Notes under the pieces: generated by a model | The model's input: only the letters and a program-made list of their open reading frames with translations | Database searches by the model: none | What the model was told of the DNA's origin: nothing | Translations under genes and position numbers: made by a program | Shown: positions 2,911-22,267 of the stretch, in pieces | Layout: every line of letters starts with the position of its first letter | Position numbering within the stretch: the first letter of the stretch is position 1 | From: Candidatus Uhrbacteria bacterium RIFOXYB12_FULL_58_10 | GTDB lineage: Bacteria; Patescibacteriota; Patescibacteriia; UBA9934; GWF2-40-263 | Length of the DNA: 64,000 nt | NCBI GenBank assembly: GCA_943359455.1 | Contig: CALRHL010000001.1 | Location: 21,184-85,183 of the forward strand | Reading direction: 5' to 3'

Positions 2911-3494
2911 CGAAAGCAATCTTGAGTGTGATCGTTCACAAGTCCGGTTGCTTGCATGTGCGCATAACAAATCGTTGCGCCCAAAAATCGAAATCCACGT
3001 TTTTTCAAATCTTTTGCGAGTCCCTCTGCTTCACGTGACGTCGTTGGAATATCGCTCAGTATTTTTCTCTTCCCCTCGATTATTTTTCCATCGACAAACG
3101 ACCAGATGTAGCGACAAAACGTTCCGTGAGAATTTTGAATTTCTAAAAATCGCTTAGCGTTATTTACTGCGGCTTCAACTTTTGCGCGATTGCGAATGAT
3201 GCCTTCGTCCGTGAGAATTCGATCGACATCTTGCGAAGAAAACTTTGCAACGGAAACAGGATCAAACTGCGCAAACAGTCGACGATAATTTTCGCGTTTC
3301 CGCAACACCGTTCGCCAACTAAGTCCTGCCTGCGCGCTTTCCAAAACCAAAAATTCAAACATCACACGATCATCATGAACCGGTACTCCCCATTCTTCGT
3401 CGTGATATTTTTCATAAAGAACATCCCCGCGTGTCACCCAACCACAGCGAGATGTAAGTGTTTGGCTGCTTTTTTCTGATCCTTTGTATTGCAT
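2901..3494 (-). CDS. tag: DNA-3-methyladenine glycosylase I
   Basis: CGW...YHDEEWGVPVHDD...LFE.LVLESAQAGLSW...IRN..K......NA pattern diagnostic of Tag. Confidence 0.85.
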   Translation of the reverse strand: MQYKGSEKSSQTLTSRCGWVTRGDVLYEKYHDEEWGVPVHDDRVMFEFLVLESAQAGLSWRTVLRKRENYRRLFAQFDPVSVAKFSSQDVDRILTDEGIIRNRAKVEAAVNNAKRFLEIQNSHGTFCRYIWSFVDGKIIEGKRKILSDIPTTSREAEGLAKDLKKRGFRFLGATICYAHMQATGLVNDHTQDCFRHV

Positions 3495-3683
3495 AACGCG
3501 CGTATGAAGTGATTCTAGTATACCAAAAAATTTTCATCGCAATTGTGAGAGCATAGAACAATGACAGAAATCAGCTTTTGTAGAGATAAATATCTAGTAT
3601 CCAGACCTCGATTGCGGACCGGCTAAATTTAGGTTCAAATAATCGTGAAAAATAGCCAGAAATTGATTTTTTTTACGTTTATC

Positions 3684-3712
3684 TTGACAAAATCGTGAAA
3701 TAGTACTATTTT
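3684..3712 (+). promoter_or_regulatory. sigma70-like promoter (TTGACA-17-TATTTT) ending about 7 nt before the fic ATG, so the mRNA is leaderless or near-leaderless; flanked by AATCGTGAAA direct repeats at 3641 and 3691
   Basis: hexamers and direct repeats read directly from sequence. Confidence 0.35.
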
Positions 3713-3718
3713 GAATCT

Positions 3719-4600
3719 ATGCCAAGATCATTGAGTGTATTTGCAAAGATCAACCGTCTACGAGAGCGCTATTATTTAGCGGCTGTTGGTAAACAGTCGT
3801 TATTGAAATTGATCAGTGAGGCGGAAGTTTCTGAGCAGGTCTATAACTCCAATGCGATCGAAAATAGCACTCTCACTCTCGAGGAGACGGAAAAAATTTT
3901 GTTGCAAATTGATTTGGACCGTTATATTTCCGAAAGGGAAATTTTTGAAGCAAAAAATCTCGCGCGCGTCGTTACGTACATCGACGCGAAAGCGAAGGAG
4001 CAAGAACTTACCCTTGATCACATCGCATCGCTCCACAAAATGCTCATTTCCAATATTCGCGACGAGATCGCGGGGAGGTTTCGAAAAGAAAACGAATGGG
4101 TTCGTGTTGGAAGTCATGTAGCTCCGGACCCAAGAGAGGTTATTGATCGACTCGAGCGAATGCTTGCAGAATATCAAGGTAGCCATCATGAGCATATCGT
4201 CAAACGCATCGCACGGCTTCATCTCACATTCGAATATATTCATCCATTTGTTGATGGAAATGGCCGCATCGGACGCGTCGTGAATAATTACCTACTCATA
4301 CGAGAAGGCTTCGTGCCTATCAATATCAAATTCATCGATCGCGAATCGTATTATGACGCCTTTCGTGATTTCGAAAAAAATGAATCGACGAGCATCATGG
4401 AAGAAATCGTTGGCAGAGCACTCACAAACAGTTACCACAAGCGACTCGCCTACCTAGAGGGGGCTCACATTGTTACACTCGTCGAATACGCAAAAAAACA
4501 GAGACTCTCACATTCAAATTTGATTAACAAGGCTAACAGACAAACAATCGAGGCGTTTCTGGAAAAGGGTGTCTGGAAGATCGGTGAAAGAAACAACTGA
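3719..4600 (+). CDS. Fic-family adenylyltransferase (class II, with N-terminal inhibitory motif)
   Basis: Fic motif HPFVDGNGRIGR; putative inhibitory helix motif SNAIEN ((S/T)xxxE(G/N)) near the N-terminus. Confidence 0.85.
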   Translation: MPRSLSVFAKINRLRERYYLAAVGKQSLLKLISEAEVSEQVYNSNAIENSTLTLEETEKILLQIDLDRYISEREIFEAKNLARVVTYIDAKAKEQELTLDHIASLHKMLISNIRDEIAGRFRKENEWVRVGSHVAPDPREVIDRLERMLAEYQGSHHEHIVKRIARLHLTFEYIHPFVDGNGRIGRVVNNYLLIREGFVPINIKFIDRESYYDAFRDFEKNESTSIMEEIVGRALTNSYHKRLAYLEGAHIVTLVEYAKKQRLSHSNLINKANRQTIEAFLEKGVWKIGERNN

Positions 4601-4704
4601 CACTGAACGAACGACTAAATCGCGCAAGAATCGCGCATGGAAAAACTGTGACCGTATAGCAGAGATGAAACATTTTCATGTTTCTTTGATATACTTCCTC
4701 ATGT

Positions 4705-6285
4705 ATGCATCTATCTTTTCAACGAGCCGTTGGGTTCTTATGTGTGACGGGTTTTGCGCTGTTCGCTTTATTGACTTCTGTCCATGCATCGATCATTGAT
4801 AGTGTCCGCGGATATATTCTCTTACAAGTTGAGCAGCATGGAGAGGCGTGGTATGTCCCGCCCGATCTAGAAACGCGTTACTATCTCAAAGATGGAACAG
4901 CGGCATACGAAGCACTCCGAGCATTCGGACTTGGAATCACTGATGCCGACTTGGCAACAATTCCTGTTGCTGGTGAAACAGCAAGTTCTGCAACGACTGA
5001 CTCGGCACTCGTCGACCGTGTTTCTGGATATATTTTGTTACAGGTCGAACAGCATGGAGAAGCCTGGTACGTTCATCCCAAAACCGGGACACGAACATAC
5101 ATGGAAGATGGTGATGCCGCATACACAATCATGCGACAACTCAGTCTTGGAATTACCGACGCGGACTTAGAACAAATTTCTATCCATGAAGATTCCATCG
5201 ATCCAAACGCGAGCACAGACGGATCAACCGTTGCCTTTTTCTATCAGTATGTCGGTGCCCTCATGAACGGAGTTGGAGATAATGGTGTGCGACTTGGTTT
5301 GACAACAGACTCAGAAGCGATCAGCACATCTCTACTCGAAGCGCTCGACTGGGAAGTTCGAACAATAGAACTTGAAGCATCGGACGAAACTGAAGATGAA
5401 GAACAATCCTATGGCGATCCTGTTTTTAGCCGCCTGAGCAATGGAAATTGGGCCATGACTTCTTGGAGTGGAAGCGACGATCCACGTGGCGCAAATGTAT
5501 TGTTGTACCATGAGTCCGAATGTCCTGTTGTTGATGACGACGCCGTTGTCGCGATAACGGCATCTTCTGAATCTGGCTGTACAAACGTACGAGCCCTCAC
5601 CGTTGGAAAAACTTCACAAATTTTCGAAAAAGACGGCAATGATTATGTCTTTCACTCAAATGGAGGTGATGTGTATCTTGCGCAACTAACAGACGACGAT
5701 CAGACTGCTTTAGAGTTGGATTCATTGTGTGTATTATCCTCCCCTGTTGATGCATTTTCTGAACTAAATTATGGCGAATCCACAAAAGTGCTTGATGGAA
5801 GTGATGAAGGACTTTTGTTTAGCGACACGGCCATAGGGCAGCGTGAAGATGGAACATGGGTGCTGTTTGCAAAGGGGATTGAAACTGATTCCGGATGCAC
5901 GAGCACAACGTTGTGTGAATTGTGTGGGCGATCAATCTATCGCGCAACCAGTTCAGATCTCATTGATTGGTCAACACCAGAAGAAGTCGTTGAACAAGCG
6001 AGTGTTCCGGAAGCGTACGTCGCAAACGATGGCAAAATTTGGCTCTATCACCAAGATTTTAGCGACGTGTGTGATGCACAAGATCAACATCTCGCAACGA
6101 TCGCGCCTGTCACTGGTCACTACGAGGCAGAAGAAACATACGAACTGTCCGACCCGATTCGCGTAGAATTCTTAGACGAAGCATTCCAAACAAACTCTAC
6201 CATCCACTACGCGACCAACGGGAATCCAGTATCGTTACCAGACCAAGAAGCCGTCGAAGCACTCGAAGCATGTGCCAACATGTAA
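4705..6285 (+). CDS. secreted protein with two tandem ~70-aa repeats (GYILLQVEQHGEAWYV...DGxAAY...LGITDADL) and a C-terminal beta-propeller-like region
   Basis: signal peptide MHLSFQRAVGFLCVTGFALFALLTSVHAS; internal duplication read directly; Asp-box-like segments. Confidence 0.5.
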   Translation: MHLSFQRAVGFLCVTGFALFALLTSVHASIIDSVRGYILLQVEQHGEAWYVPPDLETRYYLKDGTAAYEALRAFGLGITDADLATIPVAGETASSATTDSALVDRVSGYILLQVEQHGEAWYVHPKTGTRTYMEDGDAAYTIMRQLSLGITDADLEQISIHEDSIDPNASTDGSTVAFFYQYVGALMNGVGDNGVRLGLTTDSEAISTSLLEALDWEVRTIELEASDETEDEEQSYGDPVFSRLSNGNWAMTSWSGSDDPRGANVLLYHESECPVVDDDAVVAITASSESGCTNVRALTVGKTSQIFEKDGNDYVFHSNGGDVYLAQLTDDDQTALELDSLCVLSSPVDAFSELNYGESTKVLDGSDEGLLFSDTAIGQREDGTWVLFAKGIETDSGCTSTTLCELCGRSIYRATSSDLIDWSTPEEVVEQASVPEAYVANDGKIWLYHQDFSDVCDAQDQHLATIAPVTGHYEAEETYELSDPIRVEFLDEAFQTNSTIHYATNGNPVSLPDQEAVEALEACANM

Positions 6286-6343
6286 AATCTTTCCCTTGAC
6301 CAAACCCTCCTTGTTCGCTACTATTCTGGTGCCATTATTTCAA

Positions 6344-6418
6344 GGCCCCATCGTCTAATGGTTAGGACACGGGCTTTTCAAGCCTGTAACCGGAGTTCGA
6401 CTCTCCGTGGGGTCACCA
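6344..6418 (+). tRNA. tRNA-Glu(TTC)
   Basis: cloverleaf folded by hand: acceptor GGCCCCA/TGGGGTC, anticodon stem CGGGC/GCCTG, loop TTTTCAA, T-loop TTCGACT, encoded CCA. Confidence 0.85.
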
Positions 6419-7056
6419 AACTACAATCAACGTCGTCTTCCGACGCGCACAGCTCCCTGAACGGGGAGTTTTGCGTTATATGGATGATTTTTCCGCCCTT
6501 TACCGTGAGGTTCGTGAGCAGTTTTCGCATGATGTAGTCGAGGTCGGCCATGCTGTCTATTTTTCGCGCAAGGTTGGCGATGTTTCGGAATAGTTCGACA
6601 AATTCTTCCATGCTGGCCATGGCGTCAGTCGAGGCCTCCTTCACCTTCTTGAGCGTTTTGATTTTCTCGGCGAGTTCCAGCGACGCGGCCACGTCTTTCT
6701 GCACGTCGCGTTTGAACTCGCGCCGCAGGTCGGCGTCGGTCTCCCCGCGCAGCAGCTCCTTGTTTTCCTCCCGTCGCCTGTCGGTGCTGTTTTTACGCGC
6801 CACGAGCGATTTGAGCTCGTCCTTCGCCTCCTTCGCGCGTTCCACGGCTAGCCGCTTCATCTCCTCGACGTAGTGTGCGTATCCGGCCTTCGTACCCAGG
6901 GGATGCCTGTCCAAAAATGCGTAGACGGCTTCGAGCACCGCCTTCGCCCGCACCTCTTCCTTCCCGCAATTTGGCTGCTTGCAATCGAAATAGTAGTAAT
7001 GGGTTTTCGTCCCGTCCTTTTTTGGTTTGGCGGTGATGCTCGGGTACATCGGCTTC
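6378..7056 (-). pseudogene. C-terminal fragment of a large serine recombinase (zinc-ribbon plus coiled-coil region only); N-terminal catalytic domain missing, truncated by the IS insertion; 3' end overlaps tRNA-Glu
   Basis: THYYYFDCKQPNCGKEE zinc-ribbon-like motif followed by charged coiled coil; no resolvase catalytic domain; reading frame runs into the IS left terminal repeat; local GC clearly higher than neighbouring DNA. Confidence 0.5.
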
Positions 7057-8021
7057 TGAACCGTACCCCAAAAAGTGGACACGAAAGTGTCCGTTTTTTG
7101 TGTCTATAGATAATTCAACTAAGATGAATGGGTATGAGTAATCGAAGATTCACTGAAGAAGAGATGGAGGTGCTGTCACAACACATGTACGTGCGGAGAT
7201 GTAGCGAGAAATCTGTAACGTACACCAAGGAATTTAAACTGTTTGCCGTCAGGCAATACAACGAAGTATTTCTTCGAGGGAAGGCCAAATATGGTTGGAG
7301 GACGATTCAGATGAAACTTCTGGAAAAAGAGGTCGTCATGAATCACAAAAAGATCATTCGCATTAAGAATAAGTATCATCTCGTCACCAAGATCCGAAGG
7401 CACAACCCGTACAAGATGATTATGAAGAAATCGCTGGAACATCGTACGTATGAAAACATATTGAATCGTGCCTTTGACGTCCTTACTCCTTTCAAGATAT
7501 TTACCACCGACATCACCTATATCCCGCTCAATTACCGTTTTGCCTACCTGTCCGTCGTGAAGGATGTCGCAAGCGGCGAAGTCGTGGCCTGGAACCTGTC
7601 TATGCATCTGGAAATGAGCCTGGTGCTCGATACCGTGGAGGCTATGAAGAATAACCCGGTTCTCACTCCAGTCATGCTTCAAGACGTACTGATTCATTCC
7701 GACCAAGGTTTCCACTACACCAACCCGCTCTATATCGAGAAGATCAAAGGATTGCAGATGGTTCAATCTATGTCGAGACGTGGCAATTGCATCGACAATG
7801 CGCCTATTGAATCGTTCTTTGGACATCTAAAAGACGACGTGGACTACAAAGACTGCAAGACTTTCGACGAACTTCATTCACTCATCTCAAATTACATGCA
7901 ATACTACAACAATGAACGCCAGCAGTGGGGACGAAAAAAGATGACTCCTGTGGGATACAGAAATCATCTTTTAACAACTGCGTAGGTTTTTACCAGTGTC
8001 TACTTTACGGGGTACGGTTCA
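7057..8021 (+). mobile_element. IS3-family-like insertion sequence (~965 bp) with 26-bp imperfect terminal inverted repeats tgaaccgtaccccaaaaagtggacac / tgaaccgtaccccgtaaagtagacac; no clear target-site duplication
   Basis: terminal repeats read directly; encloses a single transposase ORF; left end carries hairpin plus T-run. Confidence 0.7.
7128..7985 (+). CDS. IS3-family transposase (HTH plus DDE/rve integrase core in a single ORF)
   Basis: HSDQGFHYT and SRRGNCIDNAPIESFFGHLK motifs of the IS3 OrfB integrase core. Confidence 0.85.
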   Translation: MGMSNRRFTEEEMEVLSQHMYVRRCSEKSVTYTKEFKLFAVRQYNEVFLRGKAKYGWRTIQMKLLEKEVVMNHKKIIRIKNKYHLVTKIRRHNPYKMIMKKSLEHRTYENILNRAFDVLTPFKIFTTDITYIPLNYRFAYLSVVKDVASGEVVAWNLSMHLEMSLVLDTVEAMKNNPVLTPVMLQDVLIHSDQGFHYTNPLYIEKIKGLQMVQSMSRRGNCIDNAPIESFFGHLKDDVDYKDCKTFDELHSLISNYMQYYNNERQQWGRKKMTPVGYRNHLLTTA

Positions 8022-8050
8022 TGACGGTCATTTTAATATTTTCACGGTTA

Positions 8051-9070
8051 TTACGGTGCCACGGGTGTTTTTGTTTTTGGTGGGGCGATTTTATAAACCA
8101 AAACGATTTCATTTTCAAATTCGGCTAGAGCAGGGTCACAGAATCCTCCTGTGCCTGGTGGCAAAATACTTTTTGTCAGATTACTAAAGGTGATTCCGTC
8201 CGATGAAAAGGCGCTGGTGATTCCTTGCTTGCATCCGTACATGTAAACACCATCATCGACGGCGAGTGCTCCAGGGACACCTCCTGTCGCGAGTGGAATG
8301 ATACCTTTATCGGAAAACAACAGTCCGTCATCGGACACAGCAACACCGCTCGACATTCCGACGGAGTAGTACATAATCCATTGCGACCCAAATGAGATGA
8401 CTTCTGGGTCTGTTAAATTTTCTACACTCAGACGAGTCCCTGCATCTGCTGTAAATGTAGCCCCGTCCAGAGAGGTCGCACTATAAACAAGATGTTCTTC
8501 TCCTTCTATCACAGGCCCACTTCCAAATGGTTTGTCTGGACCGTAATAATACATACGAACCGTACCATCTGAAAGTTGAACAACCGACGGATCCACTGCC
8601 GGACCTTTATTCACCTTTCCTATAACTGAAATCGGTTCACGGTCTGACCATGTTTTTCCTGAGTCTGTTGATCGTATGAAAGAAATGCCTTCCATGGAAT
8701 CCATCTCATTAAGTGGGTCAACAAAATAAATAAGAAATTCTCCTTTTTTACATGCAGATGAATCAACGCCACAAATCAACAGATCAGGAACAGACGCGCT
8801 TTCCGTCACGAGCGTTCCGGTAGGAAAAGACGTTGGATCGTTAGAAAAAGAAATGTATGTGTCATGATCTAAAATTCCCGCGCTCCCTGCATTTTGTGTC
8901 ATAGTTGGTGTTGACGGGACCATTGTTGGTGTAATCGTTTCAGAAATAGCTGTCTCAGTTTCTGTCTCGGTCTCAGATGACGTAGATGTCATTGTTTTCA
9001 CAAGAAATATAACACCTAGTGTCAATGCGACACCAAAACTTGTAAACAAAATTGACTTTGGGATAGACAT
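8051..9070 (-). CDS. secreted BNR/Asp-box repeat beta-propeller protein (sialidase/glycoside-hydrolase-like)
   Basis: start reset to MSIPKSILFTSFGVALTLGVIFLV (signal/TM); Asp-box-like STDSGKTWS; paralogous to 17268..18362. Confidence 0.55.
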   Translation of the reverse strand: MSIPKSILFTSFGVALTLGVIFLVKTMTSTSSETETETETAISETITPTMVPSTPTMTQNAGSAGILDHDTYISFSNDPTSFPTGTLVTESASVPDLLICGVDSSACKKGEFLIYFVDPLNEMDSMEGISFIRSTDSGKTWSDREPISVIGKVNKGPAVDPSVVQLSDGTVRMYYYGPDKPFGSGPVIEGEEHLVYSATSLDGATFTADAGTRLSVENLTDPEVISFGSQWIMYYSVGMSSGVAVSDDGLLFSDKGIIPLATGGVPGALAVDDGVYMYGCKQGITSAFSSDGITFSNLTKSILPPGTGGFCDPALAEFENEIVLVYKIAPPKTKTPVAP

Positions 9071-9140
9071 AAGATGGGATACTTTTTCATCATGTAAATT
9101 ATAGCACAAAAAAACGGCGCAGGGCCGTAGAGAAGAGCTG

Positions 9141-9923
9141 TTAGGCGTTGGAAAAGATTTTGAAAAACTGTTTCGTGTTGGCAATGTCGTCGTACTCCTG
9201 ATGATTAAACAGCGAGCCTTGGGCGGTTCCGGATTGCACGACGACGGAAGTATATTCGACTTCGTACGCACGGCTGAACCGCTGTGCGTTTTGCACTAAA
9301 CCTGGCATCTTGGCACGATCAGTAATCGACATGAGCACTCCTTTCAAAGTACGATCGCTTTTGATCTGCAGAACATGGCCAATGGACCAGTCTTTGGAAG
9401 GAACGATGAGGTCGACACTGAAATTTACATCTTCGTCGACTGTACTTTCCAAAACAGTGTAGTCTGCACAAAGAAGAGTCGTGACAACGTGAGCTTCTGC
9501 AAGCGAGCCAGCAATCGCAAGCTCGAAAAGTGGTTCGTTTGATGTGCGCGCGAGTACGAACAAATGTTCGAGATCTGACGGCTTCATTCCAACCATTCCA
9601 CGGACAAATTTTTTGATCCCTCCACAGTTATGGTACACATCGTCTTTTACGAAATGTGTTGTCGCGTGAGGAAGCAGATTGCGACGAGCGTATCCACACA
9701 AAAATGCACCTTGAAGCAAATAGCTCAATCCAACATCGGATGAATCGATCAAATCCTGTTGACCATCAAACAGCGATCCAACATAGGTACCGCCATGATG
9801 AAATGCTGTGAGAATCCGATTGAGGCTTTGCGCTGAACATCGATGAGGTTCAATAGGCAGATAGTGCTCAGTGTGATACGAAAGCGAATGAGCAAGTATA
9901 TGTTGTGCACGCAAAGGAAACAC
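9141..9923 (-). CDS. hypothetical protein
   Basis: ORF track only; no recognisable motif. Confidence 0.4.
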   Translation of the reverse strand: MFPLRAQHILAHSLSYHTEHYLPIEPHRCSAQSLNRILTAFHHGGTYVGSLFDGQQDLIDSSDVGLSYLLQGAFLCGYARRNLLPHATTHFVKDDVYHNCGGIKKFVRGMVGMKPSDLEHLFVLARTSNEPLFELAIAGSLAEAHVVTTLLCADYTVLESTVDEDVNFSVDLIVPSKDWSIGHVLQIKSDRTLKGVLMSITDRAKMPGLVQNAQRFSRAYEVEYTSVVVQSGTAQGSLFNHQEYDDIANTKQFFKIFSNA

Positions 9924-10057
9924 GTTTTCTCCTTGAAAAGACCGCGGTTCGAGGATTATTCAAGAGTCAGCCCTGGAGACGAATGGGCCAACAGCCACCA
10001 GAGAACCATCCCCGAACCACGGTTAAATGAGGATACAGGAAAATATCTGACTGGTCA

Positions 10058-11137
10058 ATGGACATGCTATACTACTTCCATATGCTTAGAACCCTCAATC
10101 AACACGAACAGATTGCACGCTGGTTTTTCCTATTGCTTGCCACGGGGGCGACGGTGCTGTTTTGGCAGGTGATTGCTCCGTACGCCATTACCCTGATTGC
10201 CGCGGCAATCGCAGCTGTTGTACTTTCTCCTCTTGAAGAACGAGTAAAGCGTGTGGTGAAACGACCGCATCTGTCGGCATTTATCATGATTGCGTTCATG
10301 CTTTTTCTTGTCCTTGGTCCTCTCGCGACCCTTGTGGCAGTGATGGTCGACCAAGCGCTCGAAATTGTCGCGTCCACGGTTGCAAACCCTGACTGGATCG
10401 CAAGTTTTCGTATTGATGAATTAACGCTCTTTCAGTTACTTCCAGAGTTTGTTCAAAAAGCGATTCTTGCTATTGACGTCGTTGGTGTCTTGCGAAACAT
10501 CGCGCAATGGGCGACTTCAAATCTTGGAGGATTTCTGCACGGCACAACCACATTTATCTTAAACACCTTCATCTTTTTTGTCTCCCTCTTTTATTTCCTT
10601 CTCGATCGCGAACGCATTGCCAAAGAAATGCTTGTACTCTCTCCACTGCGGGACTCAGTTGATCACGAAATCGCCCTGCGTATGGTCAATACGATTCGAG
10701 GTGTTATTTTCGGCTCTCTCATCGTCGCTTGTGTTCAAGGAATTCTCGCTGGTATCGGTCTCACCATTTTCGGTGTCCCAGGCGCCCTGCTTTGGGCTGC
10801 ACTCGTTATTATCGCCGCACAAATTCCAATGCTCGGCACTTCGCTCATTATGCTCCCGTGTGTCGGCTACCTGTTTTTCTCCGGCCACCCAACCGCCGCG
10901 CTTGGCCTGCTTATCTGGTCGTTTGTTCTCGTCTCCACGATCGATAATGTCCTCAAACCATACATCGTTGGAGGAAAAACCCGCATGCACAGCCTCCTCA
11001 TCCTCGTCTCGATGCTCGGAGGACTCGACACATTCGGCCCGATCGGATTTATTCTCGGCCCCACAATTCTCGCAGCATTTCTTGTGATGGTTGAATTGTA
11101 CAAAGCAGGGATTTTTGATAAGAATAATGTGGCATAG
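10058..11137 (+). CDS. AI-2E family (PerM-like) membrane transporter
   Basis: about 8 predicted TM helices; length and hydrophobicity pattern of the AI-2E family. Confidence 0.6.
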   Translation: MDMLYYFHMLRTLNQHEQIARWFFLLLATGATVLFWQVIAPYAITLIAAAIAAVVLSPLEERVKRVVKRPHLSAFIMIAFMLFLVLGPLATLVAVMVDQALEIVASTVANPDWIASFRIDELTLFQLLPEFVQKAILAIDVVGVLRNIAQWATSNLGGFLHGTTTFILNTFIFFVSLFYFLLDRERIAKEMLVLSPLRDSVDHEIALRMVNTIRGVIFGSLIVACVQGILAGIGLTIFGVPGALLWAALVIIAAQIPMLGTSLIMLPCVGYLFFSGHPTAALGLLIWSFVLVSTIDNVLKPYIVGGKTRMHSLLILVSMLGGLDTFGPIGFILGPTILAAFLVMVELYKAGIFDKNNVA

Positions 11138-11171
11138 ATATTTAACTCTCTAGAGACTTTTTTTCAATTCT

Positions 11172-13001
11172 ATGCTTCCACGAAAACCCGATTCCATGCG
11201 CGGACTCAATCCCGATCTACTTCCAGACCGCATGGACGCGAATCGGCATTCAAAAAAAGAAGGTCTGGATGGTGAGTGGACGGACCTCCAAAGGAAACGG
11301 AATGAAACCGCGCGTGAACTCGTTCATCTTCGACGTAACTATCTTACCGAGAATACAGAAATCGAACAGCGCATGGCTGAGTACAAAGAAACTCATCCGG
11401 AAATTTATGCGCTCATGAAAAATGTCCGAGATCGAGGACGTACGAACTACGAAGCGGCACACGCAAAGATCGCCGAGGTGTTGTATGCAGAACTGGAAGA
11501 CCAATACCAGGCCATCCCGCTTACTGCAGAAGAGATCGAGCGAGACTTGGACACAGAGCGTCTGAGCGTCATGCCGCTCAAGCAATACATTGAGCTTCTA
11601 CGCAAGCTCCCTCCGCGCTTTTTTACGCATGTCACTCGCCAAGGGGTTCGGGACAGCGGGTCGTTCCACTACGGAGGGATTGGAGAATTCCAACGCGGAT
11701 TCGACGAAATTCTCAAAAGTGGTTCTGTCGTCTCCGTCTATGACCGTGTTCTCGAAGATGGCATAACCCGCGCGACCGTCGGCGACCTTCTTAAGAGACT
11801 GAAGCTCACCCCAGAACACGAACCAGACAAGGCTGAGGCGCTCCGCAAGCTGGAATCTGAGCTCACGCGGTCCGACGTGGCTCCCATTTCGTCTTACTTC
11901 GCGGATATGAAATCGATCCATACAGCACTCGAGATGGTCGCGGACAGGAATTACGGTGGAGAAAATGGGAATGAAGTGTTTATGATCTGGCCAACCGCGC
12001 TTGTGGCAAAGGAATACCATGTCGGCACCCAACTCTTGGAAGTTCCTGACCAGTTTGATCCAGATGAAACGCATAAAAGTTCACAATTCAACGATTATTG
12101 GCTGCTACGCAAGGACGACAATACAGGAACTCTTCCGCTCGATGCCGGAATTACGTTCCTACCGGCCCGCGCCCAAGTTCACCCAGAAACAGGATCGCAG
12201 TATGAAACGACAGCAGAGGGAGATCCGATCCCAAACCCAGAAATCAAACTATTCGAAGAGCTTCTGCGATCGCAGAACTTTCAGAACATCTCCAATCAGC
12301 TCCGCGAATACATCGTTGCAAAGGAATCTGTTGCGAGATTCGACGAGAAAGCCGCGAAGGAAAAAGAGAGTTCTTCCTATTCTTCCCTGTACGTTCCAGA
12401 ATGGGAAAAACAGGAGCAACTGAGATACCAAAAAGAATTGGAAGCCGCAACACCTGCACGCATGGTATATGCCCAGCTCTGCGCGGAAGCTGGAATTACG
12501 AATCCACGAATTTTTTCAATCCCGGACCAAGGATTCTTGGCGCAACAACACCTCTCTACACTAGAATCACTCGCCATGCGCCCAACGCTAGACGAATATG
12601 CTAAACTCGATCGGCAAACGGCGCTTGGAAATCTTGGTATACGGTTTGCGCTCGCAAAGGAAACGATCTCTTCGCGAGACTATTGGGAAGACATGTTCAA
12701 ACGAACTGGAAAAAAGCCATCGAAAGTGATCTTCTACGACCAACGAGACCCAACCATGGCGCTCGACGCATTCAAACGCGTCGCAGGGATAGACCGTTCC
12801 TCATCCGAAATCGACCTCAAAAAACTCTACGAAGGAAACCTAATCGGACAGGACGGAATCAAGAACGTCCTGTCTCGCGAGTCCGAACTCGTTTGGCAGG
12901 TCGGCCAGGAGGTCATCGAGGAAATGTACGCTGCTCAGAAGCCAGTGGCGAAGCGTCGCAAAAAAAAGAGTCGCGATGACTCTAAGGTAAAACAGGAGTA
13001 G
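11172..13001 (+). CDS. hypothetical 609-aa cytoplasmic protein
   Basis: ORF track; charged, no TM, no recognisable domain. Confidence 0.5.
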   Translation: MLPRKPDSMRGLNPDLLPDRMDANRHSKKEGLDGEWTDLQRKRNETARELVHLRRNYLTENTEIEQRMAEYKETHPEIYALMKNVRDRGRTNYEAAHAKIAEVLYAELEDQYQAIPLTAEEIERDLDTERLSVMPLKQYIELLRKLPPRFFTHVTRQGVRDSGSFHYGGIGEFQRGFDEILKSGSVVSVYDRVLEDGITRATVGDLLKRLKLTPEHEPDKAEALRKLESELTRSDVAPISSYFADMKSIHTALEMVADRNYGGENGNEVFMIWPTALVAKEYHVGTQLLEVPDQFDPDETHKSSQFNDYWLLRKDDNTGTLPLDAGITFLPARAQVHPETGSQYETTAEGDPIPNPEIKLFEELLRSQNFQNISNQLREYIVAKESVARFDEKAAKEKESSSYSSLYVPEWEKQEQLRYQKELEAATPARMVYAQLCAEAGITNPRIFSIPDQGFLAQQHLSTLESLAMRPTLDEYAKLDRQTALGNLGIRFALAKETISSRDYWEDMFKRTGKKPSKVIFYDQRDPTMALDAFKRVAGIDRSSSEIDLKKLYEGNLIGQDGIKNVLSRESELVWQVGQEVIEEMYAAQKPVAKRRKKKSRDDSKVKQE

Positions 13002-13084
13002 ATTTGACGATCGTGATTTTATCACCAACCGTTAAGGTCATCAATACAAGCTATTCGGATGTTAGTGGAAAGTAGACCTGTTGC

Positions 13085-13112
13085 CAAATAAAAAATGAGC
13101 CGTGCACGGCTC
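13085..13112 (-). terminator. intrinsic terminator for the minus-strand gene ending at 13111
   Basis: perfect palindrome gagccgtgcacggctc followed on the minus strand by a U-run. Confidence 0.55.
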
Positions 13113-13725
13113 AAGAGGCGAGACGTTCGCCTGGGTGTTGTGGGTCGAAAAAGACGATTTGTTCACGTTTGCTCAAATCAACAAGATTATTGCAACTCCA
13201 CAAATCCTTCGAATCTGGACGCAACGGACCAATGCTTGGACCTGGGTAGAGAGTGCGGACAATTGCCCCAATTCCATTCGGCCATTTCTGGAACTGACAG
13301 GCGACCGTGATGATTTTTGTTTTCGGCGCGAGAACATGTGTGCACTCAGGACGAACCCGCAAACCATGACAGGTGAAATTCACCTGATACGGTTCAAGTG
13401 TATCGAAACGATGCTGGTAATTGGCAAGATCGTCTGTACAGGACCACCCAACAAATCCAGAGTATTCTACCTCGATGTAAAAGGCAGACGTGGATTTTTT
13501 GAGATCCACACCCTGCAAAACTCCCATGCATTCAAAGGCGAGTTTGTCGATGAATTCTTCGTCTTGAAACAGGTCGTTCAACGTTTCAAAACGACAGAAG
13601 TTTCCTGCTCGTCGAAGATCACGACCTCGAAAGCGCTCACGGGAGAGCCGCTGTTGTGCCCCATCACGTAGGCTGAATACGAGGTGGCAACGCATTTCCT
13701 TTGACCAGACACGCACATCATCCAT
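13111..13725 (-). CDS. hypothetical protein
   Basis: ORF track; chosen over the fully overlapping plus-strand ORF 13102..13671 because the terminator sits immediately after its stop. Confidence 0.45.
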   Translation of the reverse strand: MDDVRVWSKEMRCHLVFSLRDGAQQRLSRERFRGRDLRRAGNFCRFETLNDLFQDEEFIDKLAFECMGVLQGVDLKKSTSAFYIEVEYSGFVGWSCTDDLANYQHRFDTLEPYQVNFTCHGLRVRPECTHVLAPKTKIITVACQFQKWPNGIGAIVRTLYPGPSIGPLRPDSKDLWSCNNLVDLSKREQIVFFDPQHPGERLAS

Positions 13726-13749
13726 GACAACCTCCTGACGTGTGATATC

Positions 13750-14226
13750 ATGAAATCAAATATTAATCAAGAGTATATGCGTAGAATGATAGACGCGGGA
13801 AATATGATGGGAAGTGAACTAAATTCACGAGGCCGACAAATTCCTGAACGCGAGATTAAAATTACGTTTGCGGCATCAGGAGGACCTGGCGGCCAAAACG
13901 TGAATAAACTTGAAACAAAAGCTGTGTTTCGATGGAAGGTAAAAGATTCCACAGTGTTTACCGATGAGGAAAAAGACCGAATACGCGAAAAATTAGCAGT
14001 GAACAAAGAAGACGAGGTGAAGCTTGATTGCTCGGAGCACCGTACGCAACTTGCGAACAAGAAGGCGTGCTTTGAAAGACTACACGCAATGGTGAACGAG
14101 GCGATTGTGGTTCAGGAAGAACGGATCGATACGAAAAAGAGTAAAGGGGTACGTGCACGGGAGCTTGATTCGAAAACAAAAGATAAGCGTCAGAAGCAGC
14201 TTCGCCGAAGGGTTGATTCAGATTAG
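13750..14226 (+). CDS. arfB: alternative ribosome-rescue factor ArfB (peptidyl-tRNA hydrolase, GGQ domain)
   Basis: FAASGGPGGQNVNK GGQ motif; short RF-1-domain protein with basic C-terminal tail. Confidence 0.75.
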   Translation: MKSNINQEYMRRMIDAGNMMGSELNSRGRQIPEREIKITFAASGGPGGQNVNKLETKAVFRWKVKDSTVFTDEEKDRIREKLAVNKEDEVKLDCSEHRTQLANKKACFERLHAMVNEAIVVQEERIDTKKSKGVRARELDSKTKDKRQKQLRRRVDSD

Positions 14227-14250
14227 GTTTTCACGTAGGGTAAGCTCGAT

Positions 14251-15333
14251 ATGAGAATACTAGGAATTGAATCGAGCTGTGATGAAACGGCGATCGCTGT
14301 TGTGGAAGGCCGGGAGGCCGGGAGGAAATTCCTCCAGGCCTTACGCCTTAAGCCTTATGGCCTAAATGTTCTCACAAACCTCGTAGCTTCACAGGCGGCT
14401 TTGCATGCGAAGTATGGAGGGGTCGTGCCCGAGGTTGCGGCGCGGGAGCATGTGGATGTGATTTTTCCATTACTGATTGAATCGGGAATTGCGCGGGATG
14501 GTTCAGAGATTGATGCGATCGCTGTCACCGCCGGGCCAGGTTTGGTGCCGGCTTTGCGCGTTGGAGTGGAGCTCGCAAAGTCGCTTGCATGGGTTTGGAA
14601 GAAACCGCTTGTGGCGGTGAATCATTTGGAAGGACATTTGTATTCTGTACTGTTACAAGAAGGGTCCGAAAAACTTGAGTTTCCTGCTCTTGCTCTTCTC
14701 GTTTCCGGTGGCCACACGGAACTGATTCTGATGACAGATCATGGCCAGTACGAACGAATTGGTGCAACGCGGGATGATGCAGCTGGAGAAGCGTTTGATA
14801 AAGTGGCAAAGTTGTTAGGACTTGGATATCCGGGTGGACCAGCTGTCTCGAAAATGGCGCTGACGGGAAACCCGGAAGCGATCGCGTTTCCGCGACCGAT
14901 GATCGAAAGTGGAAATTTCGATTTTAGTTTTTCTGGACTGAAGACGGCGGTTGCTGTCTACGTGAAAGGCCGAGCGGCTGCAGGCCGTTCGACGGCCTTA
15001 GGCTTAAGGCTTAAGGAAGATGGAATAACAGACATCTGCGCCTCTTTCCAAGCAGCAGTTGTTGAGACGCTTGTTACAAAAACAATCCGCGCCGTCGAAA
15101 AATTTCATCCAAAATCTGTCATCCTTGCTGGCGGAGTGGCTGCAAATAAGTCATTGCGTGAATCACTTGCACATGCGCTTCAAAAAGATTTGACTCTTCT
15201 TGTTCCTGACCTTTCTCTCACTGGCGACAATGCGGCTATGATCGCGGCGGCCGGGTATTTTCATGCGCTTCGAAACGACTTTGTAGATCCACTCACGTTG
15301 GTTGCAAACCCAAATTGGAAGCTTGCGAAATAA
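14251..15333 (+). CDS. tsaD: tRNA N6-adenosine threonylcarbamoyltransferase TsaD
   Basis: MRILGIESSCDETAIAVV...HAKYGGVVPE...GPGLVPALRVG...LLVSGGHTEL; carries two short in-frame insertions made of a dispersed repeat. Confidence 0.9.
   Translation: MRILGIESSCDETAIAVVEGREAGRKFLQALRLKPYGLNVLTNLVASQAALHAKYGGVVPEVAAREHVDVIFPLLIESGIARDGSEIDAIAVTAGPGLVPALRVGVELAKSLAWVWKKPLVAVNHLEGHLYSVLLQEGSEKLEFPALALLVSGGHTELILMTDHGQYERIGATRDDAAGEAFDKVAKLLGLGYPGGPAVSKMALTGNPEAIAFPRPMIESGNFDFSFSGLKTAVAVYVKGRAAAGRSTALGLRLKEDGITDICASFQAAVVETLVTKTIRAVEKFHPKSVILAGGVAANKSLRESLAHALQKDLTLLVPDLSLTGDNAAMIAAAGYFHALRNDFVDPLTLVANPNWKLAK
14337..14365. repeat. AGGCTTAAGGC-like short repeat copy 1, in-frame inside tsaD; preceded by tandem ccgggagg x2
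   Basis: ggccttacgccttaagccttatggcctaa read directly. Confidence 0.5.
14994..15016. repeat. AGGCTTAAGGC-like short repeat copy 2, in-frame inside tsaD
   Basis: ggccttaggcttaaggcttaagg. Confidence 0.5.
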
Positions 15334-15339
15334 ACAGGT

Positions 15340-15777
15340 ATGAATTATTTTTCATCTTCAACGGAACAGACAAAAAAAATTGCTGCTGATTTTGCCACAA
15401 CCCTCAGCGGTGGTGAATGTATTATGCTCCAAGGTGAACTTGGATCTGGCAAAACAACATTTGTACAAGGTGTCTGTGAAGCACTTGGTGTCAAAGAACA
15501 TGTCACAAGCCCCACATTCGCCATTATGAACATTTACCATCTACCAAAACTGCCAACACCAGGTGTTGGCAAGAAAGTCGTGCACCTAGATCTGTATCGA
15601 CTCAAAACAGTCGCAGAAATTGCAGCACTTGGGCTTGAAGAGTACATGGGGCAAACCGACACGATTATGCTCGTCGAATGGCCAGATATGGTCGATGGGA
15701 TTGACTGGAAACCAACTTACACAATCACATTTACATCAACAAACGAAAACGAGCGTATCATTTCCATATCTCCCTAG
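15340..15777 (+). CDS. tsaE: tRNA threonylcarbamoyladenosine biosynthesis ATPase TsaE
   Basis: P-loop GELGSGKTTFVQG; size and position downstream of tsaD. Confidence 0.85.
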   Translation: MNYFSSSTEQTKKIAADFATTLSGGECIMLQGELGSGKTTFVQGVCEALGVKEHVTSPTFAIMNIYHLPKLPTPGVGKKVVHLDLYRLKTVAEIAALGLEEYMGQTDTIMLVEWPDMVDGIDWKPTYTITFTSTNENERIISISP

Positions 15778-15783
15778 TGTGCC

Positions 15784-16659
15784 TTGTCACGATCATTTTC
15801 TTCCTGTAAGCTCGCGATCATGAACAAACGTTTCCTCACTCATCTGCTTGTACTAACTATCGGCTTTCTTTCGCCGCATACTCTTATCGCTAGAACATTT
15901 TCTCCCGCCGCTGGGACAGATGAGTATCTTGTTGAGATTGGATATACGGAAGAACAACTTTCAACCGAAGCATCAACCGAAAATCGTGAGGCATTTTCTA
16001 TGGCGGAAGGAGAAGGTCGTGTTGAGGATCCGCTTGGGGATGTGGTCAACCGGTTTGGAACAACGTCATCCATGAAACAACCGTGGGGAGATATTGAGCG
16101 CGCGGTGATCCAAAAAAATTCTGAGACAAGTACGTGGGATGTCATTGTGACACTCGGTGGAATTGTCCCAGAAAAATCATCGATCAGTGCGCAGTTATTT
16201 GTGTTGTTGGATACCGATGGTGACAAATCGAATAACGACCGCGACGGATTTCGTATTGGGACCGATGCAGAGTTTAGTCTGCAAACAACATCAGAACACC
16301 CATGGTATGTTGACTACCGCTGGTATAATCCAGATCCACAGTTTTGGGCAGTAAATAAAGAGACGATGTCGAGCTATGAAATCGACGGAAACACAATCAC
16401 GATGCACATTCCTTTTTCAGAAGCACCAGAGTCACTCACTCCACATTGGCGTGTGGTTATGGGACTGGCAGATGGAGCAGAGAATCAGATCGACGCTGTA
16501 CCAGGAACTGGGTTCCCTCCACCAAAAGGTGAAACCTATCCATCTGATTCAAAAGTGGCTGCGTCACTTTCTCTTGGCTGGATCACTTGGGGAATCATCG
16601 GAATCATCGTTGGTTACGGTGGATATTCTGCATTTGCCAAGAAACGAAAAATAGGATAG
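15784..16659 (+). CDS. hypothetical secreted protein with N-terminal signal and C-terminal TM anchor
   Basis: hydrophobic N-terminus and C-terminal LGWITWGIIGIIVGYGGYSAFAKKRK. Confidence 0.5.
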   Translation: MSRSFSSCKLAIMNKRFLTHLLVLTIGFLSPHTLIARTFSPAAGTDEYLVEIGYTEEQLSTEASTENREAFSMAEGEGRVEDPLGDVVNRFGTTSSMKQPWGDIERAVIQKNSETSTWDVIVTLGGIVPEKSSISAQLFVLLDTDGDKSNNDRDGFRIGTDAEFSLQTTSEHPWYVDYRWYNPDPQFWAVNKETMSSYEIDGNTITMHIPFSEAPESLTPHWRVVMGLADGAENQIDAVPGTGFPPPKGETYPSDSKVAASLSLGWITWGIIGIIVGYGGYSAFAKKRKIG

Positions 16660-16672
16660 TCTTTTGTCGCAT

Positions 16673-16747
16673 GCGGGTATCGTATAACGGTTATTATCTC
16701 AGTTTTCCAAACTGATGAAGCGGGTTCGACCCCCGCTACCCGCTCCA
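16673..16747 (+). tRNA. tRNA-Gly(TCC)
   Basis: cloverleaf folded by hand: acceptor GCGGGTA/TACCCGC, anticodon stem TCAGT/ACTGA, loop TTTCCAA, T-loop TTCGACC, encoded CCA. Confidence 0.8.
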
Positions 16748-16811
16748 TGCACCATGTGAGGTGCATGGCAAGCCATGTAGGAAAGCGTGTTGGGAGGCAT
16801 GTAGCAAGGCA

Positions 16812-16840
16812 TTGACAATTACTACTAAAGATGATATTAT
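16812..16840 (+). promoter_or_regulatory. near-consensus sigma70 promoter TTGACA-17-TATTAT upstream of the zinc-ribbon gene
   Basis: hexamers and 17-nt spacer read directly. Confidence 0.55.
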
Positions 16841-16922
16841 TTCTCGCGTTGAAAGCCTCTGGAAGCTCACGATGTAAATCGCGTTCTTCCTATGGGTCTT
16901 TGACCCTGGATTAACAAAGATT

Positions 16923-16962
16923 CATACGTTGCTTTACGCGCGTATGAGATAAGCAACGTATG
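16923..16962 (+). promoter_or_regulatory. 12-bp-stem hairpin in the 5'UTR that sequesters the ATG of the zinc-ribbon gene; its loop contains the palindrome tacgcgcgta
   Basis: catacgttgctt ... aagcaacgtATG are exact reverse complements. Confidence 0.35.
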
Positions 16963-17229
16963 CCAGACATCAATCTCGTCTGTCGCGATTGCGGAAAAGA
17001 ATTCGTCTTTTCCGAACGCGACCAAGCGTTCTTTTCCGAAAAAGGCTGGGCTAACCAACCAACTCGTTGCCGCGACTGCGCACGCCAAAAGCGTGATCGC
17101 ATGGACGCTCCACGTCAAATGTTTGACGCGGTGTGTGCGGACTGTGGCGCCAACTGCCAAGTTCCATTCCAGCCACGCGGTGACCGTCCGGTCAAATGCC
17201 TCGCCTGCTTCAAAGCAGGACAAGCATAA
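16960..17229 (+). CDS. double CxxC zinc-ribbon protein (zf-trcl-like family)
   Basis: CRDCGKEFVFSERDQAFFSEKGWANQPTRCRDC and CADCGANCQVPFQPRGDRPVKCLAC pattern. Confidence 0.7.
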   Translation: MPDINLVCRDCGKEFVFSERDQAFFSEKGWANQPTRCRDCARQKRDRMDAPRQMFDAVCADCGANCQVPFQPRGDRPVKCLACFKAGQA

Positions 17230-22211: not shown

Positions 22212-22267
22212 TGAACCGTACCCCAAAAAACGGACACTGTCGTGTCCACTTTTTGGGGTACGGTTCA
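22212..22267. repeat. 56-bp near-perfect palindrome made of two inverted copies of the terminal repeat of the IS at 7057..8021 (miniature IS-end element)
   Basis: right half is the exact reverse complement of the 26-bp left terminal repeat of the IS; left half differs at 2-3 positions; 4-nt spacer tgtc. Confidence 0.6.

Follow-up and report, generated by a model that had tools for sequence, protein, structure and literature searches.

What is the open reading frame (ORF) that leads from the end of an insertion sequence (IS) directly into the 3'-end of a tRNA-Glu gene of Candidatus Uhrbacteria bacterium RIFOXYB12_FULL_58_10, and how did this arrangement arise? The question was addressed in a stretch of 64,000 nucleotides (64 kb; contig CALRHL010000001.1, positions 21,184 to 85,183), called here the window and numbered from its first letter. 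An earlier reading of this DNA, made without database searches (the sequence-only reading), had proposed that the minus-strand ORF 6378-7082 was the remnant of a large serine recombinase (LSR) gene, which belonged to a foreign element at tRNA-Glu and was truncated by an IS3-like insertion. The analysis of the fragment, its relatives and the IS together indicated that the best overall explanation, which we consider highly probable, is a small element at tRNA-Glu that was truncated, with an IS at the break, and whose distal part was lost.

The recombinase fragment

The ORF 6378-7082 has 234 codons of three different origins. Codons 1-9 (7057-7082) are inverted-repeat sequence of the IS, showing that the reading frame does run into the left inverted repeat (IRL) at 7057, as had been proposed. 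GC-rich foreign DNA makes up the following ~213 codons (7055-6419), and the final 12 codons with the stop (6378-6418) are antisense tRNA, the TGA lying within the anticodon loop. The element-derived DNA left at the locus is 6419-7056. Its GC content was 56.1%, compared with 46.6% for the whole window (z = 2.9), a value not reached in any of 6210 equal-sized, non-overlapping windows, and its GC content at third codon positions (GC3) was 74%, compared with 36-52% in five host genes. Intact relatives were likewise GC-rich relative to their own flanks. The foreign origin read from the composition was in this way upheld.

When two full-length LSRs were used as tblastn queries against the 64 kb, only their residues 345-557 were found, confirming that the resolvase-type catalytic N-terminal domain, with its serine nucleophile, is absent from the window. 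The Recombinase domain (PF07508) was also absent from the fragment and was present in the homologues P0003 and P0004 and in the full-length homologues. In the alignment, the window protein starts at KPMYPSIT, opposite KPMSTGIT, immediately past the first CxxC of the zinc ribbon; what it retains is the remaining half of that ribbon, followed by the coiled coil and the C-terminal region. The sequence-only reading had described it as the zinc-ribbon and coiled-coil part of an LSR; the homologues supported this, except that, of the ribbon's two Cys pairs, just the second (FDCKQPNC) is there. Pfam PF13408 gave no match on the fragment and matched the same aligned region in homologues. Identity was 46-50% to P0002-P0004 (E ~1e-50), and 49% and 44% to the LSRs of loci L007 and L011, respectively. 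As judged from these homologues, the fragment is the C-terminal ~213 residues of an LSR. The DNA at 6419-7056 cannot recombine DNA, and it acts now only as the 3' flank of the tRNA.

The fragment and the features that surround it were localised as follows.

6296-6324, plus strand: promoter-like site (TTGACC, 17-nt spacer, TACTAT) 5' of tRNA-Glu in host DNA, from a consensus scan; a pattern match only, the scan count being no higher than in shuffles
6344-6418, plus strand: tRNA-Glu(UUC) with encoded CCA, intact, the integration target (attB side); ARAGORN and Rfam RF00005 (61.6 bits)
6381-7056, minus strand: C-terminal fragment of an LSR gene, as judged from homologues, tblastn, an AlphaFold2 (AF2) model and GC content
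6412-6418, no strand assigned: GTCACCA (antisense TGGTGAC), 7-bp block common to both junctions of intact relatives, with the crossover inside; attL/attR comparison in L006, L011 and L015
6431-6445, plus strand: hairpin 1, CGTCG-TCTTC-CGACG, within the element-derived DNA 3' of the tRNA; hairpins of relatives at the same place
6445-6476, plus strand: hairpin 2, whose core CTCCC-TGAACG-GGGAG precedes TTTT, outer stem GCGCA/TGCGT; RNA fold and relatives
7057-8021, plus strand: IS3-family insertion sequence, an internally deleted derivative of 965 bp; inverted repeats, NCBIfam and alignment to L033
8022-8053, no strand assigned: native intergenic DNA and stop codon of a host gene, the right-hand limit of the lost DNA; homology to L032

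The attachment junction and the elements of relatives

A word-seeded search of 5.8 billion proteins gave three relatives of the fragment at 47-50% identity, two of them with Recombinase and Zn_ribbon_recom domains, and a profile search of 1.8 billion representatives gave 387 clusters at E <= 0.001. The full-length relatives, typically of 545-570 aa, carried the Resolvase (PF00239, E 7e-18 to 4e-24), Recombinase and Zn_ribbon_recom domains and matched the SPbeta and TP901-1 integrases in the PDB; alignment to full-length recombinases, which the sequence-only reading had suggested as a check, supported its assignment. A profile built from the four close homologues gave noise only when compared with PDB sequences. 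A scan of one genome per species identified 26 loci, chiefly in Candidatus Uhrbacteria and other Patescibacteria. Among the viral contigs of IMG/VR no relatives were found, and a phage origin was unsupported.

In 19 of the 26 loci the 3'-end of the recombinase gene overlapped an antisense tRNA, which was tRNA-Glu (UUC or CUC) in 16 loci, tRNA-Leu in two and tRNA-Val in one. Upstream of the recombinase gene the relatives had a conserved block of ~1.3-1.7 kb, at whose outer edge the other junction was found in seven loci, where GGTGACCCC separates a host hairpin and its T-run from a conserved arm. The seven intact elements measured 2958-4482 bp from junction to junction and had the gene order 63-aa ORF, 136-140-aa helix-turn-helix protein, 185-217-aa protein on the opposite strand, and recombinase. 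Because the same layout is present in 19 of 26 loci and both ends are identifiable in seven intact elements, the overlap of the window fragment with tRNA-Glu is a genuine attachment (att) junction, as had been claimed from the window sequence. In L006, L011 and L015 the tRNA reads GGTGAC-T and the distal junction GGTGAC-C, and to the left of the block the two sequences diverge; therefore the exchange occurred inside TGGTGAC, which is antisense to the terminal 7 nt of the tRNA. Of the comparisons with relatives that the sequence-only reading had suggested, the one for intact elements succeeded (n = 7) and the one for an empty tRNA-Glu site did not.

Tandem arrays were also observed. In L009 (8960-18107), a type-1 element of ~3 kb is followed by a second element of 7.4 kb, which bears a Toprim/AAA_25 primase-helicase and a different serine recombinase of 514 aa that also ends in the same tRNA-Glu. 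In L017 (~6640) both types of serine-recombinase element are in tandem, in the reverse order. At the internal junction of the arrays, a recombinase gene reads into the arm of the other element. The L009 and L017 arrays fit repeated integration, as expected.

Relics of the same recombinase gene, of varied lengths, were found next to or near tRNA-Glu in L004, L025-L028 and L031, and all of them keep the tRNA-proximal end with two hairpins. In L026 (9887-10192), an internal deletion joins the first ~30 to the last ~60 residues of the recombinase. The closest full-length relative of the fragment, in L003 (8230-9935), has its catalytic domain in another frame than the remainder of the gene, which is either a frameshift or an assembly error; this contig stops 30 nt after the stop codon, within tRNA-Glu.

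In five distant members (P0099, P0050, P0053, P0079 and P0093), inspection by eye showed termini resembling translated antisense tRNA (GLEPA, GIEPP, TRTHDL, TRTPDL), suggesting that tRNA targeting may hold for the whole clade. The searchable literature yielded no description of Patescibacterial serine integrases that sit at tRNA genes, or of ones that have an intragenic attP, which is not proof of absence.

Conserved hairpins beside the tRNA

The ~60 nt that separate the tRNA from the gene body showed, throughout the family, DNA conservation well beyond the requirement of the protein, with the flank consensus ATAACACAAAACTCCCC[GT]TTCAGGGAGCT...GAC[AG]CCGATTCGG[TC]GATGGTGAC. Two hairpins are formed on the tRNA strand of this region. 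In 18 distinct sequences 93% of the cells paired, as against at most 59% when the 3' partners were slid, and three pairs showed compensatory changes, with an observed covariation score that one of 500 shuffles reached. Hairpin 1 was present at the same position in relatives as CACCG/CGGTG, CGCCG/CGGCG and CACAG/CTGTG, and the window copy differs in sequence yet still pairs (CGTCG/CGACG). The core of hairpin 2 in the window is the family consensus, its minus strand encoding the invariant ITQNSPFREL, and in 18 relatives every position of the stem was paired (100%), one of the pairs being compensatory. Folding of 6419-6490 gave -26.7 kcal/mol (z = -4.1), and none of 200 shuffles was equally stable. 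Hairpin 2 was also considered as an intrinsic terminator and was not called by a simple scan, because its T-run can pair into the extended stem.

In the intact elements, the host hairpin and T-run, which would lie next to the tRNA in an empty site, have been moved to the far junction. Comparison of these flanks suggests that the element-borne hairpins may stand in for the displaced host hairpin.

A conserved flank raises the possibility that the relic was co-opted, either as a truncated protein that starts at a GTG in the IS end and hinders related incoming integrases, or through hairpins that terminate or process the tRNA-Glu transcript. The frame indeed has 225 open codons and a GTG start codon within the IRL, relics of many lengths elsewhere keep the tRNA-proximal ~100 nt with both hairpins, the hairpins fold well and show compensatory changes, and the host hairpin with its T-run is displaced to the far end of intact elements. 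However, neither a promoter nor a ribosome-binding site was shown, a hairpin and T-run in the IS end face the fragment, and a recent truncation would leave the frame open anyway; hairpin 2, as said, was not called as a terminator. Selection on the flank would explain why relics retain the tRNA-proximal end, and the lethality of deletions that reach the tRNA would explain it equally well. We regard co-option as unlikely, and return to the explanation by truncation and loss, in which the IS is the second component.

The insertion sequence

The IS is bounded by inverted repeats of 26 nt that are 88% complementary (IRL 7057-7082; right repeat, IRR, 7996-8021) and end in TG...CA (TGAACCG...CGGTTCA), a match that did not occur in any of 100 shuffles of the window. 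Its ORF (7128-7985) matched the NCBIfam IS3 transposase NF033516 with 210.4 bits (cutoff 160), the match spanning profile positions 136-369 of 369 only, and was also matched by Pfam rve, rve_2 and rve_3. In thousands of relatives, OrfB (~283 aa) is a separate protein that covers 85% of the window ORF, and the contig is usually of ~1.4 kb. Alignment to L033 (861-2255, with a 147-aa orfA and a 283-aa orfB) showed that the window IS is without 439 bp internally. This deletion takes most of orfA, the orfA-orfB interval and the beginning of orfB, and joins OrfA residue ~43 to OrfB residue ~41 near 7253, resulting in a fused orfA'-'orfB. The IS is short (965 bp) because of this deletion.

No target-site duplication was found at the ends of the IS, whose flanks read ...GGCTTC and TGACGG... 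(TTC vs TGA), and no second copy of the IS was present within the 64-kb window. The sequence-only description of an IS of ~965 bp, with one fused ORF and no target-site duplication, proved accurate, and its shortness is now traced to the deletion. The IS keeps the catalytic core and has lost most of OrfA, suggesting that it is probably not autonomous.

Two further observations concern this IS type. At 22212-22267, starting 37 nt past the rpoC stop, two IS3-type inverted repeats meet back to back across a 4-nt spacer and form a near-perfect palindrome of 56 bp, for which a target duplication was not evident. It is perhaps an extreme deletion derivative, perhaps a remnant like a miniature inverted-repeat transposable element (MITE), and it could form a hairpin where the rpoBC operon ends. 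In addition, a minus-strand ORF of 216 aa (7176-7826) lies antisense to the transposase, and public gene calls list it instead of the transposase ORF.

Loss of the distal part of the element

The right end of the IS is 29 nt from the stop of a host gene (8051-9271, minus strand), which is intact and called as 339 aa. The spacer and this gene are homologous to L032 up to the IS end, where the sequence reads TAAAATGACC[G/A]TCA and then enters the IS. By tblastn, the LSR N-terminus, the helix-turn-helix gene, the 185-aa gene and the tail were absent from the 64 kb, and no second att core with the Y arm was found in the window. The only other att near-match on the correct strand lies inside rpoB and was rejected, and the second att-like copy that the sequence-only reading had suggested looking for was accordingly missing. 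Compared with an intact element, the window is without ~345 recombinase codons, three small genes and the distal junction. The absence of a target duplication, the absence of any remainder of the element and a right end abutting DNA syntenic with L032 agree with the proposal of an insertion with adjacent loss.

We infer the following order of events. A small (~3-4.5 kb), GC-rich element of the kind seen in Candidatus Uhrbacteria and other Patescibacteria would have integrated at the 3'-end of tRNA-Glu(UUC), its LSR recombining within TGGTGAC, so that the recombinase gene then ran into the oppositely oriented tRNA. An IS3-family element would then have come to lie at a break in the recombinase gene, directly past the first CxxC; a deletion or rearrangement associated with the IS would have removed everything distal; and the IS itself would have lost 439 bp internally, fusing orfA' to 'orfB. 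A deletion adjacent to the IS is the simplest reading of the loss, and recombination between two copies of the IS, joining two loci, could also have produced it.

The window was collinear with L032 by blastn at 1290-2910 and again from 8048, with flanks of ~86-90% nucleotide identity. Between them, the block 2911-8047 of the window contains an adenine glycosylase gene, a Fic gene, a gene for a 526-aa protein, tRNA-Glu, the relic and the IS, and in its place L032 has 672 bp (7334-8005) with one 150-aa gene and without a tRNA. The flanking host genes were also considered as paralogues of each other, and their similarity was too weak to say.

A junction of this kind could in principle be an assembly chimera, in which unrelated loci were joined over a repeated IS, so that both the truncation and the missing duplication would be artefactual. 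This would account for the lack of a target-site duplication and for the right end of the IS being at a synteny breakpoint relative to L032; moreover, IS ends recur in the genome (the 56-bp pair of inverted repeats at 22212-22267) and the Logan contig ends within the tRNA. However, two independent assemblies span both IS junctions and agree across them: the ENA MEGAHIT assembly (L001) is exact over 6362-9300 of the window, and the Logan assembly (L002) is identical over its full length, 6362-17049. Because of this identity, misassembly is unlikely. The IS copy is furthermore a distinctive derivative with a 439-bp deletion, no further copy occurs in the 64 kb, and relics of the same gene beside tRNA-Glu are common in other genomes, all of which makes a chimera very improbable. 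That the IS was merely inserted into a complete recombinase gene, with nothing lost, is suggested by the reading frame passing directly into the IS end. It is refuted by what lies to the right of the IS, where an intact and unrelated host gene has its 3'-end at a distance of 29 nt, and by the lack of LSR N-terminal coding sequence anywhere in the window; the missing target duplication also speaks against it.

Several results weigh against truncation and loss of an element as set out above. Searches of Pfam, NCBIfam and PHROGs with the fragment itself gave nothing significant, and its assignment to the LSRs consequently rests on homologues. The AF2 model of the fragment, made from a shallow alignment, was weak overall, with a predicted local distance difference test (pLDDT) of 59.9, and its best Foldseek match, the serine integrase complex 9y66, was not significant (E = 0.08). 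In favour of the assignment, this model did give a confident helical hairpin (helices 56-104 and 108-165, with pLDDT >90 at residues ~81-130), as expected of the coiled coil, flanked by short beta hairpins. The fragment still has 225 open codons, and residual expression is possible. An empty tRNA-Glu site was not found, nor was an intact copy from this species; when the neighbouring host gene was used to look for the empty site, L032 as the closest relative proved to have no tRNA there, and more distant relatives were not syntenic. Finally, since the IS end is one of two synteny breakpoints relative to L032, the history may be a rearrangement between two loci and not a local deletion.

The distal arm and a possible attP within the recombinase gene

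In each of the seven intact type-1 elements the distal arm, translated in the recombinase frame (GTG ACC = Val-Thr), consisted of exactly 45 conserved codons before a stop, with the sequence VTPKRASMNYVAKLEELVPFIMAWNGDVSRFLQRPRALQRVAVTY and variants. The arms were localised at L003 5414, L006 113, L007 7388, L011 7346, L013 7162, L015 6254 and L017 6640. The L015 arm has Ser where the others have Met, so that there is no conserved start codon at this place. Arms of the second type of element have Trp at the Met position (WNQFMEELRMW...), and a recombinase gene is read through into those of L009 and L004.

These arms suggest that attP may be localised within the recombinase ORF, a structural claim that comes from integrated elements and that we consider somewhat favoured. 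On the simplest reading of such an intragenic attP, integration would swap a tail of ~42 residues for ~12 residues of antisense tRNA. A regulatory role of this swap seems less probable than the structural claim itself. If the reading is true, the enzyme would differ between its free and integrated states, and it would be a bacterial counterpart, among the serine recombinases, of the archaeal 'suicidal' integrases. The wider proposal, which we offer tentatively and with less confidence than that of the intragenic attP, is of an undescribed, Patescibacteria-wide clade of LSRs that would target the last 7 nt of tRNAs (mostly tRNA-Glu), would have an intragenic attP with a tail swap possibly setting directionality, and would bring their own hairpins to replace the displaced terminator.

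Significance and comparison with known systems

As an object, the window feature is an ordinary, non-functional remnant; integrase pseudogenes and defective IS copies beside tRNA genes are common. Its value lies in correct annotation, with the ORF as a pseudogene remnant, the IS as defective and the tRNA as intact. The intact relatives apparently constitute an undescribed clade of tRNA-targeting serine integrases in Patescibacteria. Serine integrases are prized tools of genome engineering and are thought to avoid tRNA targets. With its hundreds of sequence clusters and its 7-bp core at the tRNA 3'-end, the clade would offer new, highly conserved landing sites. It would also provide a natural test of the effect of C-terminal sequence on directionality, as the C-terminus may change on integration, and it would be one of the few defined families of mobile elements in the little-known mobilome of Patescibacteria.

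The full-length relatives share with the known LSRs (phiC31, Bxb1, A118, TP901-1 and SprA of SPbeta) the order resolvase domain, recombinase domain, and zinc ribbon with an inserted coiled coil, as well as a position at one end of a small integrated element. In contrast to these, they target tRNA 3'-ends, their gene overlaps the att site, their elements are of 3-4.5 kb only, their hosts are Patescibacteria and none was found in IMG/VR viral contigs; the window copy further differs in lacking the catalytic and recombinase domains. The targeting of a tRNA by a serine integrase is unusual: the TIGER survey placed only 14 of its 297 serine integrases at a tRNA or tmRNA gene and stated that this was previously unreported (PMC7192596).

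With the IS3 family, the window IS shares a DDE (rve) transposase above the NCBIfam cutoff, TG...CA repeats, and relatives of ~1.4 kb with orfA and orfB. It differs from the family, which has two overlapping ORFs in ~1.2-1.5 kb and makes a target-site duplication of 3-4 bp, by its single fused ORF, its length of 965 bp and the absence of a duplication.

The P4 and Islander islands at tRNA genes, which use tyrosine integrases, also have the integrase beside the tRNA, keep the tRNA intact, form tandem arrays and leave common decayed relics. According to the published Islander account (PMC4383910), such islands restore the split tRNA with element-borne sequence, the displaced tRNA fragment being found at the far end. 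The relatives described here differ from them in the recombinase family and in an att block that is confined to 7 bp at the tRNA terminus.

The SSV1-type ('suicidal', type I) integrases of archaeal viruses and plasmids target a tRNA, as the relatives do; they would also share with them an attP in the integrase frame and the separation of the 3' part of the gene on integration, if the reading from the integrated elements is right. Intragenic-attP tyrosine integrases of the SSV type are stated to be confined to archaea so far, where the split gene controls directionality (PMC7253208). SSV1-type enzymes are tyrosine recombinases, whereas the relatives of the window fragment are resolvase-type serine recombinases in bacteria; and while the split inactivates the enzyme in the SSV1 type, here a tail of ~42 residues would be exchanged and the recognised domains would stay together.

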